Source of the DNA: Patescibacteria group bacterium
GTDB taxonomy: Bacteria; Patescibacteriota; Minisyncoccia; Phycocordibacterales; UBA918
Assembly (NCBI GenBank): GCA_019745315.1
Contig: JAIETH010000002.1
Coordinates: 32,654 to 96,653 of the forward strand
DNA: 64,000 nt
Direction: 5' to 3'
The notes beneath the pieces were generated by a model. It was not told the origin of the DNA. It was given only the letters and a program-made list of their open reading frames with translations, and ran no database searches. The position numbers and the translations under genes were made by a program. Positions 18,035 through 48,735 of the stretch are shown piece after piece (the stretch's first letter is position 1; the number at the start of each line of letters is the position of its first letter).

Positions 18035-18293
18035 TTAAATATTTAATCTGTTGGAATTTAATATCAAGTGTAGTATTTTTGCAACTCAAAATCAAAACCT
18101 AAGCAACTCTATGAATGCATAGTATTCCTTGTCTTGAATCCTGAAATCGAAATTTGCATGACGATGTTCAGCATTCCTTACAGGAAATACATTCTATTAG
18201 TACACCTCGGCTCCGCATATTTCTATGCTTCCACCTGGTGCCTATCAACCTGATAATCTCTCAGGGAATTTAATGATTCCTCATCTTAGAACT

Positions 18294-18326
<33 letters not shown>

Positions 18327-18452
18327 ATTCCGAACGTAGCTACAGGGCAATGCCGCTGGCGCGACAGCCCTCAGACCAGAGGTTCGTTCATCCCGGTCCT
18401 CTCGTACTAGGGACAAATTTCCTCAAGAATCGACGCCTGCAGTAGATAGGAG

Positions 18453-18486
<34 letters not shown>

Positions 18487-18561
18487 GCGTAACTTTTTAA
18501 TTGGCGAACAGCCAAACCCTTGGGACCTGCTCCAGCCCCAGGATAAGTTGAGCCGACATCG

Positions 18562-18927
18562 CTGTCATTTTTCCCACATTACTGTGAGGATCGGACTATA
18601 TCTTCATCCATACGTAATTTCGCATGGAGATCGGCGTGTAGTCTCTACGGGATCATGTACCAATATGCTTTCGGAATGAAATTAATCTGAAATTGATACT
18701 GACTTCCCACGGTATTGTCCACCTTCTCATTCTCTCTTACGAGAGCGGCTGATGTGGAGTTCACCGTTATAGCCAATTTGTTTTTGTACGGCATTACTGC
18801 CATAGGCACCCCGATGTATTTCGTTTGTTCTATATGGACTTTCGTCCATACAATCTTCGCTCACTCGGTCATGCAAAAGTAAACTTTTGCGCGACGCTCA
18901 TTCGCTTGATTGTAACTACATAAGTTA
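18562..18927 (-). ncRNA. Group I intron of 366 nt in 23S domain V, inserted after the U equivalent to E. coli U2500. It carries no ORF.
   Basis: Exon continuity GGCACCU|...|CGAUGUCGG. The 5' exon ends in U and the intron ends in G. The core sequences GUAGAGACUACACGCC and AAGAUAUAGUCCGAUCC resemble group I P7/J8-7. Confidence 0.65.
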
Positions 18928-19495
18928 AGGTGCCGAACCGTGCCGTCGCTATGGACGCTTGGGCACGACTAGCCTGTTATCCCCAGGGTAACTTTTATCG
19001 GGTAATCTCCGGCCGCATCTAACGCGTACCATCGGTTCACTATGCTCCGCTTTCGCGTCTGCTTGGCATCTACGCCTTACAGTCAAGCTGGCTTATGCCA
19101 TTACACTATCGGCACGGTTTCCATTCGCGCCTAGCCAACCTTGAGACCCCTCCGTTACTTTTTAGGAGGGTAGCGCCCCACTAAAACTGCCTACCACGCA
19201 CTGTCTCAGCATGATTTTTTCATGCTGGTTAGAAACTGCCCGAGTAAAGAATGGTATTTCACTGACGAGTCCACACTTCCCAAAAGAAATGCTTCAACCT
19301 CTCCCATCTATTCTACGCATCACAAGAACAGCCTCAATACGAAGCTACAGTAAAGCTCCTGGGGTCTTTTCGTCTAACTGCAGGTACCCGGCATCTTCAC
19401 CGGGATTGTATTTTCACCGAGCAAGTCCTTGAGACAGTTCCCCAGTCATTACGCCATTCGTGCACGTCGGAACTTACCCGACAAGGAATTGCGCT

Positions 19496-19722
19496 CTTCT
19501 ATTCCTCAAAGAAGGACTCTGTCTTCGTCCGTCCGCATAGGCGACTAAGGACGCGTGACATCTGGTCTCTTTGTGGTCACGTTTTGACTAAGCGTACATC
19601 TCTGTACGCAAGGTAGCTTTTTGAATGATCATCTACGTATCTCTCATAGATGAATTTGCGTCCATTTACCAATCCATAATCGTTCCAGTCATTCGGTTCA
19701 CTTCATTACTGAAATGAACCGA
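19496..19722 (-). ncRNA. Insertion of 227 nt in 23S domain IV at the L1931-equivalent site. It is a candidate small group I intron or intervening sequence.
   Basis: Helix 69 is intact (AGCGAUAACUAUAAUCGUU). The exon reads CUAAGGU|...|AGCGCAAUUCC. The insert begins with U-exon, ends with G, and contains CCUUAG, which is complementary to the 5' exon. Confidence 0.5.
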
Positions 19723-22106
19723 ACCTTAGAACGATTATAGTTATCGCTGACATTGACCGGGGCTTACATAGCCCAGCAGTACAGATTGCTCCATACCACC
19801 TTCCATGTTTAACCTTCCGGCATTGGTCAGGCGTCACCCCCTATACATCCACTTACGTGTTCGCAGGGAGCTGTGTTTTTGGTAAACAGTTGCCAGGGAA
19901 TCTTTCGCTGCGGCCTCTCACCTTGCGGCGAGGAGGCAGGCCTTATCCCGAAGTTACGGCCGCTTTTTTGCCGAGTTCCTTAAGGACCTCTCACTCGTTC
20001 GCCTTGGTCTACTCGACCTGATCACCTGTGTCGGTTTGCGGTACGGAACCGTTTTGTGTAACGTAGAAGTTTTTCTTGGAAGCGTGCTCCCACAATTGAC
20101 GTGTCCGAAGACACATCTTCAGGTTCAACTCGGATGTGCATTAAAGCAGAAGTGCGGATTTACCTACACCTCACCCTCGAAGCACCAACGAAAATCCAGT
20201 AATTCGTTTGAAGTACAACCCTCCGTCCCTCCATAGAAACAAAACGGTGTTATGGAATATTAACCATATGTCCATCGCCTCCCCCGTTCGGGATCGGCTT
20301 AGGCCCGACTAACCCTTGGCTGATCACCATCGCCAAGGAAACCTTGATCTTTCGGCGGGAGGGGCTCTCACCCTCCTTGCGGTTACTTGTGCCGGCATTC
20401 TCACTTCCATACGCTCCAAGTCGGGTCTCCCCTCCTCTTCATCGCAGAATGGAACGCTCTCCTACCACTTACTCTGTACGAATACAGAGCAAATCCGCAG
20501 TTTCGGTACTATGCTTGAGCCCCGATCATCTTCGGCGCAGAAACTCTCGACGAGTGAGCTGTTACGCTATCTTTAAAGGATGGCTGCTTCTAAGCCAACC
20601 TCCTCGCTGTCAATGAATTTCCACCTCCTCAAGTTGCACTGAGCATAGATTTAGGGACCTTAACTGGCGATCTGGGCTGTTTCCCTTTTGACCAATGGAG
20701 CTTATCCCCCATAGTCTAACTGCCGTGTTTTTAATCCTTGGTATTCGGAGTTTGATAGGTCCCACGAGATTTCTCCCTGTTGGGACCTTCCAGTGCTCTA
20801 CCCCCAAGGGGAACACACGACGCCAACCCAAAAGCTGTTTCGGAGAGAACCAGCTATTACGGAATTCGATTAGCTTTTCACTCCTTACCACAAGTCATCC
20901 GATGGTTTTGTACGGCCAACCGGTTCGGGCCTCCCCTTATCTTTCGATAAGGTTCACCCTGCTCATGGCAAGCTCATCCCGCTTCGGGTCGCATTCTATC
21001 CCTTATAATTTCGCGCTATTAACACTCGCTTTCGCTCTGCCTCCGGGGGTCGTCCCCTTAGACGAAGGAATACAATGCACTCGCCGGCTCATTCTTCAAT
21101 AGGCACGCGGTCACCAGACTTACGTCCAGCTCCCACTCTTTGTAGGCATACGGTTTCAGATCTATTTCACTGTCCTCACCGGACTGTTTTTCACCTTTCC
21201 CTCACGGTACTCGTTCACTATCGGTCTCTTAAAATATTTAGCCTTAGGAGTTAGTGCTCCCAGATTCATTCGAGCTATTCATGTCTCGAACTACTCAGGA
21301 ACGACAACAAGAAAGTAGTATTGATTTCGTATACGGGACTATTACCCACTGGGGTCACGCTTTCCAGCGTGTTCTACTACCAATACTTTTTGTAACTTTC
21401 CTCAACTAAATGAAGTTGCCGCCCTACAACCCCGACTATGTAAACACAATCGGTTTGGGCTGATCCCGTTTCGCTCGCCGCTACTAAGGGAATCGCAAGT
21501 GTCTTCTTCCTGACTATAATGGCTCCGCCAGTTGGCAGAATTTAGCCAGAAAGAAAACACCTTGTATTGCTTTCTTTTCCTCCAGGTACTGAGATGTTTC
21601 ACTTCCCTGGGTATGCAAATGTCTTACGACAAATCTCTATCGTAGATAGAGGGGTTTCCCCATTCGGAGATCCTCGGTTATAACGATTGCTTGGCATCTT
21701 ACCGAGGCTTATCGCAGCCATGCCACGTCCTTCTTCGCTTTTAAGAGCCTAGGCATCCACCGTACGCCCTTCATTCCTGTAAGGAATGCTAGACACCGTT
21801 TAAGGCACTTTCCATTCCATTACATGAATACTAAACACCGCTGTTTAGATTTTGATTTTTGTTGTTGTTCGCATGACACACACTCTGACGAAAAGACCCT
21901 CTTTAAAGACATGTGTGCACCATGCGTCACGTGTATGCAACAAAACATACACGATTGCTCGATACTTCCTACATGATATTAAATTTTCAACGAGCGAGTG
22001 TCCCGTATAAGGACTAAAAAAACCGCTTTGAGCGGAGAGAGAAACCCACAGAGAGTCCAACTTCCGCTTACAGGTTTTTATAGTTACTCATAGACACGTA
22101 GCCGCC

Positions 22107-45183: not shown

Positions 45184-48100
45184 TTATACCAAGGTCACTC
45201 GATATGTTCGTTGATCAAGAGTGAGGGCTTCTCCGTCAGAAGAATCAAAACGAATATCTGTAGCATTCACCGTACGTGCAATCATATCTCTATACTCTGC
45301 CACTATGCTCTGACCCTCTCCATCAGTGTCTACAACAAGAACAATACCGTCTTGTGGCGCGTACCCTGACTGCTTTCGTAATTCTTGAATATGGCGCATA
45401 AGATCTCGCACCTCCCCTTCACGCGCGAGTTCTGGTGTGATCTCTGAATCAAGGGCAACCTCGCTTAATAGGGACTGGTCTTCTACGATCTGTTTTACAT
45501 TCACCTCTTCCTTGATCAATATGAGAAGATCTTCTGTATTTAAATACTCAGCACTCTTGATGCGAAGTGTTTGAAGAGGCTGACGAACTTTTACTCCCAC
45601 CTCATTACGAGCCTCAAGCGCCAAAGATACAACATCTCGTACTTTTTGCATTGCGCGCAAATCTTCTTCTTTTGGAGAAATTGAAATTGAAGGCCATGAT
45701 GCAAGGTGCACACTTATAGGATCAGCTTCTTCGCGCACAACTTGGAATAGGTGCTCAGCAAAAAACGGCATCGCCGGAGCCATCACAAGTGATAGCGTTT
45801 TAAGAATATAACGAAGCGTTGCAAGTGTTGCTCGTTGATCTTCCTCTCCCCCATACTTCAATCGCTCACGTGAGCGTCGCAAATACCACACCGAGAGATC
45901 GTCAATAAAGCCAGTAATTGGTCGCGTTGCTCGATCAAGCTCATACTCTTCCATACCGAGAGTTACATCCGCGACCACCTCTGACATCCGCATCAATATC
46001 CACGTATCAAGTACATGTGTTGAACCAAGCGCTTCTCCTGCTGGCACATCAGACTCTTTATACAACTCATAGAATGAAAGCACATTAGCCAAACGACCAA
46101 TGTTTTTGCGCCCAAGCTCAGCAAGACTTTTTTCAGAAAAGTTAAGATCTTCACCTCGAATGATTGGAGACGAGAGTAGATAAAAACGAAGTGTGTCTGC
46201 GCCATAGACATCAACAACATCCATGGGATCAGGATAGTTTTTTAGCTTCTTTGACATCTTGCGCCCGTCTTCAGCTAACACCAATCCGTTCACAATAACG
46301 TTCTTATATGGCGATCTTCCAAAAAGAGCTGTTCCAAGTACGATAAGAGAATAAAACCACCCACGAGTTTGATCTACTCCTTCCGCAATAAAATCAGCAG
46401 GATACCCTATTTCTTTCTCTGGGTTAAAACGATCAGTATTTTCAAATGGATAATGCTGTTCTCCATATGGCATCGAGCCCGATTCAAACCAACAGTCAAA
46501 TACATCTGGTACGCGTACGAGTGTTTCTCCATCAGTATCTAGAAGTTTAATTTCATCAATATACGGGCGGTGATAATCAAGTTCGTAATTTCGATTATGC
46601 GGCAATGGTACAAACTGAAGCTCTCGCACCTCTGCATTTGTAAAATACTCGCCTGAGTTACGCATCAGTTCGGTCTTATCTATATCTGCACCGAGAGCCA
46701 CCGACTCAAGTCCAAAGAGAGGCCCTGCGTGACTAATGATAAGGATATTCTTGCCCTTAAACTTCGCATCAATATCATAGAGAAATTCACCCACCCTTTT
46801 CTGTACATCCCGACGATTTTCAAGATTCCCAATTTTTGTGAGATATCGTGATTTCCAATCAGGAAAAAGTGCACTGTGTTCTGCCCATGTCTTCCCTTCA
46901 AAATCAGGACCGATCTGCATTTCACCAATTCGATCGTCTTCAATCATCGCTGAATCAGGAAGGTTAAAATGTTTCTGCAAAATTTCTGCAGTTTGTTTTG
47001 TGCGCTCGTAACCAGAGTGGATGATGAGATCGATTTTTTTATCTTTGTACTCTCCCGCAACCTTCTCTACCTGCTCTATCCCTTTTTGTGTCAAAGGATT
47101 GTGAGCCTCCTTTTTGGTACTTACTACGTCAGCCGCATTGCTTTCAGCTTCGCCGTGACGCATGAGGAAATACTGATTACCAGACTTTGGCACATGTGAC
47201 GCAAGCTCCTCGAGTGAGCCAAATACTTTATAGGTATTTGCTTTTTTGTTTTTCCATACCGGAAGCGGTGCTCCCCAATACCGCTGACGAGAGACCGCCC
47301 AATCACGTGCGCCCTCAAGCCAATTTCCAAAACGAGCTGAACCAATATGTTCTGGCACCCATCCAACTTTCGAATTTTCTTCTACGAGCTTATCTTTAAA
47401 ATCGGTAACCCGCACAAACCATGAAGACGTTGCATAGTTAAGAAGTGGTGTCTCACAACGCCAACAGTGCGGATAGCTGTGCACAATGTTTTCTTTTCCA
47501 AAAAGGCGTCCGCGCTCTTTAAGCATCTTTAAGATCAAAACATCTGCATCGGTATGAAGAATGCTCTTCTCAGAATCATCTTTCGGCTTCACAGGGCGCC
47601 CAGAGAGATCAGTAATATGCGACATGAAGTTCCCTTCTGTATCTACATGATGTACTACTGGAATTTCTTCCTTTTGTGCAAGAACAAGATCTTCTTCTCC
47701 GTATGCAGGAGCCAAATGCACTGCGCCTGTTCCGCTTTCAAGTGTTACATAATCAGCATGATAAATTTTCCATGCATTTGTTTTATTCTCTATATCGCGA
47801 TCAGCATAATATTCAAATGGAGGTATGTATGATTTTCCAACTAACTCTGAACCCTTAAACTCTTCCACTATTGAATAGTCTTCAGTCCCGAGCTGAGAAA
47901 TTCGCTCTTTCGCAAGAATAACAAAATCTTTTTTCCCTTCTAGAGAAACTTCAACCTTTACATACTCGTGGTCATTATGAACGGCAGCTGCCATATTGCC
48001 TGGAAGCGTCCACGGTGTAGTTGTCCACACAAGAAGAGACGTATCAGTCACCTCGCGAGCCTCATCCAGAAGCGGAAGCTTCACAGTAACCGCAATATCT

Positions 48101-48735
48101 TTTATATCTTTATAGCCCTGGTTTACTTCAAAGTTTGAAAGTGTGGTGCCGCAACGGGGGCAGAAGTGCATGGACTTAAATCCTTCGTATACCAACCCTT
48201 TTTTATTAAGCTCAGAAAAAACCCACCACACACTTTCAGTGTATGACGCATCCATTGTCTTATAGTCATCGTCCATATCAGCCCAACGACCGAGGCGCGG
48301 AATGATACGCTTCCAATCATCCGCATACTCCATCACAGTATCAGCACATGCTTGATTGAATTTCTCTACCCCAAGCTCTTCAATATCTCTTTTAGTAGCA
48401 AGTCCGAGCTTTTTCTCGATGATGTTTTCAAGAGGGAGTCCGTGACAGTCCCATCCCCACTTACGAGTGACATGATATCCGCGCATCGTTCTATAGCGTG
48501 GAATGGTGTCCTTAATAGTTCCTGCAAGAATATGTCCGTGATGCGGAAGCCCAGTTGCAAACGGTGGCCCGTCATAAAAAACGTATTCACCAAGCGGAGA
48601 TTCTTTTTCTAATGACTTTTCAAAAATCTTTTCTGTATTCCAAAACGCAAGAACAGCTTCCTCACGCAAAGCGACATCACTCACCTTTTTTTCTGTTGTA
48701 GTATCTGGTGTTTTTTCCATAACAAATCCCCCCAC
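45184..48735 (-). CDS. ileS: Isoleucine--tRNA ligase (type 2) with an inserted histidine-phosphatase (PGAM-like) domain.
   Basis: Shows HIGH (PHHGHIL), the editing domain, WCISR-like RDWAVSRQRYWG, KMSKK and the C-terminal domains. About 195 extra residues with LMRHGEAESN and ILIISHAGPL motifs are inserted between PLPVW and YHRPYIDE. The likely true start is MEKTP at 48720. Confidence 0.85.
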   Translation of the reverse strand: MGGFVMEKTPDTTTEKKVSDVALREEAVLAFWNTEKIFEKSLEKESPLGEYVFYDGPPFATGLPHHGHILAGTIKDTIPRYRTMRGYHVTRKWGWDCHGLPLENIIEKKLGLATKRDIEELGVEKFNQACADTVMEYADDWKRIIPRLGRWADMDDDYKTMDASYTESVWWVFSELNKKGLVYEGFKSMHFCPRCGTTLSNFEVNQGYKDIKDIAVTVKLPLLDEAREVTDTSLLVWTTTPWTLPGNMAAAVHNDHEYVKVEVSLEGKKDFVILAKERISQLGTEDYSIVEEFKGSELVGKSYIPPFEYYADRDIENKTNAWKIYHADYVTLESGTGAVHLAPAYGEEDLVLAQKEEIPVVHHVDTEGNFMSHITDLSGRPVKPKDDSEKSILHTDADVLILKMLKERGRLFGKENIVHSYPHCWRCETPLLNYATSSWFVRVTDFKDKLVEENSKVGWVPEHIGSARFGNWLEGARDWAVSRQRYWGAPLPVWKNKKANTYKVFGSLEELASHVPKSGNQYFLMRHGEAESNAADVVSTKKEAHNPLTQKGIEQVEKVAGEYKDKKIDLIIHSGYERTKQTAEILQKHFNLPDSAMIEDDRIGEMQIGPDFEGKTWAEHSALFPDWKSRYLTKIGNLENRRDVQKRVGEFLYDIDAKFKGKNILIISHAGPLFGLESVALGADIDKTELMRNSGEYFTNAEVRELQFVPLPHNRNYELDYHRPYIDEIKLLDTDGETLVRVPDVFDCWFESGSMPYGEQHYPFENTDRFNPEKEIGYPADFIAEGVDQTRGWFYSLIVLGTALFGRSPYKNVIVNGLVLAEDGRKMSKKLKNYPDPMDVVDVYGADTLRFYLLSSPIIRGEDLNFSEKSLAELGRKNIGRLANVLSFYELYKESDVPAGEALGSTHVLDTWILMRMSEVVADVTLGMEEYELDRATRPITGFIDDLSVWYLRRSRERLKYGGEEDQRATLATLRYILKTLSLVMAPAMPFFAEHLFQVVREEADPISVHLASWPSISISPKEEDLRAMQKVRDVVSLALEARNEVGVKVRQPLQTLRIKSAEYLNTEDLLILIKEEVNVKQIVEDQSLLSEVALDSEITPELAREGEVRDLMRHIQELRKQSGYAPQDGIVLVVDTDGEGQSIVAEYRDMIARTVNATDIRFDSSDGEALTLDQRTYRVTLV

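Follow-up and report, generated by a model that had tools for sequence, protein, structure and literature searches.

How can a functional 23S rRNA arise from a gene whose peptidyl-transferase loop is split by several hundred nucleotides of inserted sequence? The question is raised by the only 23S rRNA gene in the window, the whole 64-kb stretch of DNA analysed here. The gene is read on the minus strand together with its insert (18175..21783); it matches the Rfam model RF02541 with 2278 bits, comprises 3609 nt compared with the 2925 positions of the model, and scores as a normal full-length rRNA. The insert (18562..18927, minus strand, 366 nt after U2500) can be assigned from its sequence, from alignment with E. 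coli 23S rRNA and from an Rfam match to RF00028 of 63.1 bits. We regard it, with a probability of about 0.9, as a genuine, splicing-competent group I intron without an endonuclease gene, placed between U2500 and C2501 of the 23S rRNA of a CPR bacterium.

Position of the Insert and Its Host

The 5′ exon, ...GGUUCGGCACCU, closes with the letters GGCACCU, its final base being the U at 18928. The insert extends from 18927 to 18562, exactly 366 nt, beginning with UAACUU (first nucleotide U, 18927) and ending with GACAG, such that the terminal guanosine, ωG, is intron position 366 (18562). From 18561 onwards the 3′ exon resumes as CGAUGUCGGCUC, with the opening letters CGAUGUCGG. The original prediction had described this arrangement, 366 nt after GGCACCU with an exon U before and a G last, and every letter of it holds; the strand had been left unstated and is the minus strand. 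In a MAFFT alignment with E. coli 23S rRNA, a single 366-nt insertion stands between CCU and CGAUG. Because position 2501 of the E. coli reference copy (2905 nt) is the canonical U2500, and because the CGA after the insert represents C2501-G2502-A2503, the insertion site is U2500/C2501 (L2500), as had been proposed. L2500 belongs to the central loop of the peptidyl-transferase centre, and the insert lies in a single-stranded part of it, adjoining A2503-U2506. Since the loop is split beside these residues and the window holds only this 23S gene, removal of the insert with ligation of the exons should be essential; given this position, retention should be incompatible with 23S function.

Synteny of the flanking genes links the window to contigs named Paceibacteria, Paceibacterota or Patescibacteria; the neighbouring VWA protein has an identical NCBI counterpart from 'Patescibacteria group bacterium', and its named homologues are from Kaiserbacteria. 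To judge by these neighbours the host is a Paceibacteria/Kaiserbacteria-like CPR bacterium, in agreement with the CPR origin claimed earlier. Relatives were sampled through the VWA gene, that is, regardless of the intron, which gave nine syntenic species. L2500 is uninterrupted in eight of them, and L133 alone has an intron, of 347 nt; the contigs L125 and L128, which encode the closest VWA homologues, end at the rRNA and lie outside this site comparison. The empty site in 8/9 relatives thus represents a sporadic pattern, typical of a mobile intron family.

Fold of the Intron and Its Homologues

The Rfam model Intron_gpI (RF00028) matched from 18823 to 18572 with 63.1 bits (E 1.2e-13 for the whole window; model positions 1-253 of 253), above its curated gathering score of 50 bits; the scan that the original prediction had named as its check was therefore positive. 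The match leaves the first ~104 nt of the intron uncovered. The model is confined to 18572-18823 because the first ~110 nt of the intron are an expanded P1 loop, a feature that was missed in the prediction, although its group I reading stands. The Rfam score is moderate and the Rfam alignment mis-assigns the 5′ hairpin; the MFE z-score of the intron is −6.25. Both core strings quoted earlier are present, GUAGAGACUACACGCC at intron positions 280-295 and AAGAUAUAGUCCGAUCC at 323-339, and the Rfam consensus gAAGAUAUAGUC matches the stretch that had been compared with the Tetrahymena intron, in which J8/7 has the sequence AAGAUAUAGUC.

In the MFE fold, the exon strand GGCACCU (18928..18934; all coordinates of the fold refer to the minus strand) pairs with GGGUGCC at intron positions 117-123 to give a P1 of 7 bp, with the splice-site U (18928) in a U·G wobble. 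The six nucleotides directly 5′ of this intron strand, ACAUCG (intron 111-116), can pair with CGAUGU of the 3′ exon. The resulting 13-nt internal guide ACAUCGGGGUGCC (ACAUCG|GGGUGCC, 18805..18817; P10 strand 18817-18812, P1 strand 18811-18805) pairs 13/13 with the ligated junction GGCACCU|CGAUGU without a gap. It is conserved in the family; such a guide occurred in 7/20000 intron shuffles, and neither strand of the 64-kb window has another. The P1 loop, L1, measures 110 nt (18818..18927), compared with 21-53 nt in relatives that lack the module described below. The P2 hairpin UAUGGCA-GUAA-UGCCGUA (18787..18804) has a GNRA loop, and 5/5 of its inner pairs covary. P3 (18777-18772 with 18635-18630; element 18630..18777) encloses P4 (18766-18762/18714-18710), P5 (18758-18754/18722-18718), P5a with a GUAA loop (18745-18732) and P6-P6a-P6b (18708-18649), with P4, P5 and P6-P6a-P6b taken from the derived fold. 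The P7 5′ strand G-A(bulge)-GACUA (18639..18645), with the presumed guanosine-binding G-C pair beside the bulged A, pairs with UAGUCC in the classical guanosine-binding arrangement; between P7 and the P3 3′ strand the window copy has only CAC and is without P7.1/P7.2. P8, UCCAUGCG-AAAUUA-CGUAUGGA (18607..18628), is given by the Rfam alignment and the derived fold. J8/7 (UGAAGAUA), identical to the Rfam consensus, and the P7 3′ strand (UAGUCC) together occupy 18593..18606, match the consensus GAAGAUAUAGUC and are invariant in the family. The P9 hairpin CUCACA-GUAA-UGUGGG (18573..18588) again carries a GNRA loop, with 6/6 pairs covarying, and the 3′ exon strand of P10, CGAUGU (C2501-U2506, 18556..18561), is paired in 95.6% of the family.

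Homologues were sought by scanning a genome collection for the conserved 23S pattern up to U2500 followed by any base except C. Among the at least 120 loci listed, about 95 were chance matches in GC-rich genomes, which were filtered out by their 23S context; at least 25 loci have a true 23S context and an insert after U2500, and 18 of those listed are complete. This count is a lower bound, the window's own genome being absent among the matches listed. The hosts among these matches are mostly CPR (Daviesbacteria, Roizmanbacteria, Paceibacteria, Zambryskibacteria, Campbellbacteria, Yonathbacteria, Saccharibacteria), and all L2500 inserts listed align as one family. Outside CPR, members were observed in a tick's Coxiella endosymbiont and two Gammaproteobacteria MAGs (L091 6863-7694; L025 2254-3108; L050 1636-1974). 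In four cases the intron ends in A rather than G before CGAUGUCGG (L051 3257-3559, L053 593-905, L041 5764-6096, L050 1636-1974), and these members are thus without the canonical ωG; an intron end A instead of ωG has been reported for one Coxiella 23S intron. An insert of 25-60 nt between P7 and the P3 3′ strand, resembling P7.1/P7.2, occurs in 13 of the 18 complete relatives listed, which is consistent with a family of the IA type. The window copy would then be a reduced member of an IA-type family, to which no subgroup is given since P7.1/P7.2 are absent.

In an alignment of 19 L2500 introns, the derived P1-P10 fold is paired in 84% of cells, compared with 33-45% when the 3′ partners are slid; 42/75 pairs show changes on both sides, and 0/500 shuffles were as good. 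The splice-site U·G is invariant in 19/19 homologues. In P7 the inner five pairs are invariant, while at the outer pair 13 introns have G-C and 6 have A-U; P3 is paired in 65% only, because some alignment rows are shifted by one column (1 nt). At every invariant and nearly invariant family column the window copy has the consensus base. The earlier group I reading is hence supported by the Rfam match, by every sequence-level hallmark and by covariation of the fold in 19 homologues.

This architecture also bears on the reading of the insert as an unspliced intervening sequence (IVS) or expansion segment, which would either be retained in the mature 23S rRNA or be excised by RNase III without ligation, leaving a fragmented 23S rRNA. 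Bacterial 23S IVSs do exist, the accessible text of a survey of CPR rRNA genes records many non-intron insertions in 23S (PMC11270868), and there are other small inserts in the 23S gene of the window. Nevertheless, such an origin is highly improbable for the 366 nt, as known IVSs are extended stem-loops that replace helix tips (H25 or H45) and not a strand of the peptidyl-transferase central loop, whereas the insert lies at U2500/C2501 and has group I architecture, with a complete core, guide, U·G, ωG and covariation. Furthermore, conservation of P10 would be purposeless unless the exons are ligated.

Proposed Splicing Mechanism

The pairings described above, together with the chemistry of the group I family, suggest the following course of events. 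After transcription, P1 would form between the guide ACAUCGGGGUGCC and GGCACCU at the end of the 5′ exon, placing the splice-site U in the U·G wobble, while the core P3-P9 would fold with a P3/P7 pseudoknot. An exogenous guanosine, bound at the P7 G-C pair beside the bulged A, would attack the 5′ splice site, and the terminal G366 would then replace it in the same P7 pocket. With the 5′ half of the guide holding the 3′ exon CGAUGU in P10, the freed 3′-OH of exon U2500 could attack, ligating the exons and restoring GGCACCU-CGAUGU.

The 110-nt P1 loop is unusual and could slow the formation of P1 or make splicing protein-dependent. Along these lines, one may consider a group I intron that is unable to self-splice and needs a host or trans-acting maturase or chaperone, or a dead relic in a non-functional rRNA copy. 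The large loop would fit such a picture, as would the lack of the endonuclease/maturase gene found in the closest relatives listed and the absence of the P7.1/P7.2 peripheral elements present in many relatives. A 23S group I intron can indeed stay unspliced, as documented for Simkania (Everett et al. 1999, cited in the accessible text of PMC11270868). On the other hand, all family-invariant core positions are intact in the window copy, three GNRA loops for tertiary contacts are kept, the surrounding gene has a normal full-length score and is the only 23S in the window, and ORF-less L2500 members of 299-369 nt are common among the matches listed. Impaired splicing of this kind is therefore considered improbable, and an intact, splicing-competent intron remains the preferred reading.

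The Endonuclease Gene

No ORF of at least 60 aa was found in the intron on either strand, the longest having 55 aa, and the frame equivalent to the LAGLIDADG_2 ORF of the relatives is open for only 25 codons; the claim that the intron has no ORF, and so no homing endonuclease, was thus correct. By comparison, in the long members of the family, which measure 803-861 nt, the P6 loop harbours an ORF of 190-216 aa that encodes a single-domain LAGLIDADG_2 protein (E about 1e-40). In L012, L054, L070, L060 and L024, the AUG of this ORF lies inside the P5 3′ strand (AUGGACAAUACCGUGGGAAG) and the stop codon in the P6 3′ strand, such that the first ~10 codons (MDNTVGSLTQ) double as ribozyme core, an overlap of coding and catalytic RNA. 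In the Coxiella endosymbiont of Ornithodoros amblus, the LAGLIDADG ORF of the intron is broken by a stop after 23 codons.

The six closest cores among the matches listed (74-86% identity to the window) all carry the LAGLIDADG_2 gene, which argues for loss of the gene in the lineage of the window; most likely the window copy has lost its endonuclease gene and is now inherited vertically. Two possible traces of the lost gene were rejected. The P6 loop does not keep both ends of a deleted ORF, its 27-nt P6b loop being no closer to the ORFs than shuffles, and the N-terminal similarity (DNTVGS...) is no ORF remnant but is encoded by the shared ribozyme core.

A Tandem-G·A Module in the P1 Loop

The P1 loops of the relatives contain one small hairpin in 21-53 nt; those of the window (110 nt) and of L046 (120 nt) both carry, in addition, a module of ~87 nt, located in the window at 18827..18913 (minus strand) and defined by homologous copies and covariation. 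It consists of two hairpins. The first, CAAUC AA GC GA AU GA G..GUCG ... UGAC C GA GU GA GC GAA GAUUG, is long and is built of 2-bp steps alternating with symmetric 5′GA/3′AG loops; it is followed by the second, UAUGGAC-GAAA-GUCCAUA. Between copies, the 2-bp steps show compensatory changes. In an alignment of 12 copies, which was fitted to the model, the module fold is 89% paired, compared with ≤51% when slid, and 23/26 pairs are changed on both sides. Readings as a K-turn, loop E or 11-nt receptor were set aside on inspection by eye, the loops appearing as symmetric tandem G·A without a 3-nt bulge and UAUGG as normally paired.

Rfam contains no match to the module: a search of window positions 18540-18950 at E≤1 gave the intron and one chance match only, and none was found for the copies in L123 and L124 at E≤0.5. 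Similarly, a blastn search with the extra P1-loop segment detected no further copy, either in the window or among the first 122 loci, and its interpretation as a dispersed repeat was rejected for this reason; no description of the module was found in the searchable literature. A metagenome scan with a 20-base module signature, however, led to two contigs related to the window by synteny, L123 and L124. On each of them the module is located in the 23S leader rather than in an intron, ~350-400 nt before the mature 5′ end and downstream of a sigma-70-like promoter and a boxA-like box. Covariance model searches extended the list to the 23S leaders of L131, L132, L126 and L127, the 23S-5S spacer of L129 and, in divergent form, the rplJ leader of L130; in unrelated control loci, about 500 kb in total, they gave no match. 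The 23S leaders of the window and of L046 are without the module, and neither L133 nor the complete L136 locus has it anywhere, so that 'one module per 23S transcription unit' was rejected as a strict rule.

Two further occurrences were observed. The 23S leader of L131 has, immediately behind its first copy, a second, partial one (2547-2618). A variant of the module also occurs in the 16S leader of the window itself (3632->3545, minus strand, ~160-250 nt upstream of 16S); it comes after a boxA-like UUGUUUUUUGAAAG and shows the exact hairpin UUGUAUGG...CCAUACAA (UUGUAUGGUCUCCAUACAA), with one match found and none expected.

The module in the intron would be a secondary insertion: a structured RNA element present in transcribed rRNA spacers of relatives would have entered the P1 loop, where it would fold on its own and leave P1 and P10 intact. 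As a low-confidence guess, it may be a protein-binding or processing element of pre-rRNA that can work anywhere in sequence later discarded. Put more specifically, and tentatively, the module could be a functional cis-element of CPR pre-rRNA, e.g., the site of an assembly, antitermination or processing factor, which is intron-borne here and in L046, where the leader copy is missing.

Alternatively, the module could have no role as RNA and be a mobile hairpin of the selfish, REP-like kind, which would spread as DNA into non-coding sequence (e.g., by a Y1/RAYT-type transposase). Its occurrence at different non-coding sites among relatives (leader, spacer, rplJ leader, intron loop), its absence from the complete loci L133 and L136, a Y1_Tnp gene near rplJ in L133 and ACAA repeats bounding the module all point in this direction; so does its distribution, which does not follow intron relatedness, since the core of the L046 intron is only 70% identical to that of the window. 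Yet every copy lies in sense within the rRNA or r-protein transcript to which it belongs, the surveyed stretches of ~20-64 kb contain no more than one or two copies each, and none lies in the ordinary intergenic DNA of the window. Moreover, compensatory changes affect the base pairs that flank the G·A/A·G loops, but the loops themselves are conserved, and this argues for selection on a folded single strand. Mobility at the DNA level is thus a doubtful explanation as well, and the possible readings are ranked with the cis-acting pre-rRNA element first, the REP-like selfish hairpin second, and a peripheral stabiliser of P1 last.

Further Features of the rRNA Loci

According to Rfam, the 23S gene (21783->18175), the 5S gene (17947->17840) and the 16S gene (3385->1927) all share the minus strand. 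They do not form a linked operon, as ~14.4 kb with protein genes separates the 23S-5S unit from 16S. Promoter-like sites precede the 23S-5S unit (TTGACG...TATATAAT, ~22134-22107) and 16S (TTGACG...TATAAT, ~3757-3730). The 23S leader (21876-22035, minus strand) contains a terminator-like hairpin with a U-run, CCGCUCAAAGCGGUUUUUUU (22035->22016), ~80 nt after the promoter, and a boxA/boxC-like GGGUCUUUUCGUC...GUGUGUGU at 21899->21876 (minus strand). Both the hairpin and the box recur in the leaders of L123, L124, L131 and L132.

The 23S gene has a second large insert of 227 nt after U1931 (19496-19722, minus strand), which ends in G and contains a J8/7-P7-like GAAGACAGAGUCC. No match to Intron_gpI was obtained for it even at E≤10. 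An insert of 183-414 nt is present at L1931 in 7/7 relatives in which the search pattern found the site, and RNAalifold predicted 52 pairs for seven such inserts, 31 of the pairs with compensatory changes. The L1931 insert is probably a compact, divergent group-I-like intron fixed in the lineage of the window. Compared with E. coli, there are also smaller insertions of 68 nt after position ~227 (21499-21566, minus strand) and of 54 nt after ~289 (21383-21436, minus strand), likely expansion or IVS-type elements in domain I. Elsewhere in the window, an isoleucyl-tRNA-synthetase-like ORF (45184-48735, minus strand, 1183 aa) has a histidine-phosphatase domain (His_Phos_1, residues 523-692) between the halves of its catalytic domain.

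Relation to Known Introns and Implications

The mechanistic archetype for such elements is the Tetrahymena LSU intron (L1925), of subgroup IC1 with P5abc, P2.1 and P9.1/9.2. It shares with the window intron the U·G at the 5′ splice site, a guide forming P1/P10, the guanosine-binding pair of P7 by a bulged A, the J8/7 sequence AAGAUAUAGUC, and ωG; in contrast, the window intron is without P5abc, P2.1 and P9.1/9.2 and has the expanded P1 loop instead.

Closer counterparts exist in CPR bacteria. According to the accessible text of Tsurumaki et al. (2024, PMC11270868), 82% of CPR 23S genes have insertions, and 433 of 968 such insertions are group I introns, 222 of the 433 being ORF-less; they cluster around the peptidyl-transferase centre, at some sites that are new for bacteria. 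The original prediction had called rRNA introns a CPR hallmark that is rarely annotated; the first part agrees with these figures, while the rarity is overstated in view of 433 published group I introns in that account. Host group, gene, detection as group I by Rfam and the stretch towards the 3′ end are common to those introns and the present one. The sites named in the accessible text are 1917, 1931, 1952, 2593, 2604 and 2657, not 2500, which may be among 23IS9-11. LAGLIDADG_1 is the family named there at 23S sites, whereas the relatives of the window intron carry LAGLIDADG_2, and the P1-loop module of the window intron has no counterpart described in that part of the paper.

With regard to the site itself, a literature search for L2500 returned only unrelated genome-assembly papers, but introns of subgroup IA3 (IA3.2 and IA3.3) are known at LSU/2500 in archaea (Nawrocki et al. 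2018, PMC6125680). Compared by description, they have the same site and broad subgroup but belong to another domain of life; at ~800 nt they are more than twice as long as the window copy, which is ORF-less and without P7.1/P7.2. The bacterial 23S group I introns outside CPR listed in the accessible text of PMC11270868 are those of Thermotoga (L1931), Coxiella (L1917 and L1951) and Simkania (L1931). Like the window intron they are group I elements of domain IV/V, often with LAGLIDADG genes, but they occupy different sites; following the same text, self-splicing is experimental for the Thermotoga and Coxiella introns, whereas for the window intron it is deduced from sequence. Since both group I introns in CPR 23S genes and IA3 introns at LSU/2500 have already been published, the window intron is an ordinary, documented kind of element.

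What had appeared as an unannotated 366-nt interruption of the peptidyl-transferase centre is, on this reading, a standard ORF-less group I intron, the recognition of which aids rRNA annotation and shows the gene to be intact. The L2500 introns represent one family across many CPR lineages, with a few members in Gammaproteobacteria and Coxiella endosymbionts, and the endonuclease gene, present, decayed and absent side by side within it, is distributed as expected from a cycle of gain, decay and loss. The conserved ~227-nt insert at L1931, which escapes the Rfam group I model, offers a lead for a new RNA family of CPR rRNA operons; another is provided by the covariation-supported module, which is absent from Rfam, is found repeatedly in the leaders and spacers of rRNA genes and was also copied into the loop of an intron. 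If the pre-rRNA reading of this module is true, a host pre-rRNA signal, needed somewhere in the discarded transcript, would have come to be carried by a self-splicing intron.
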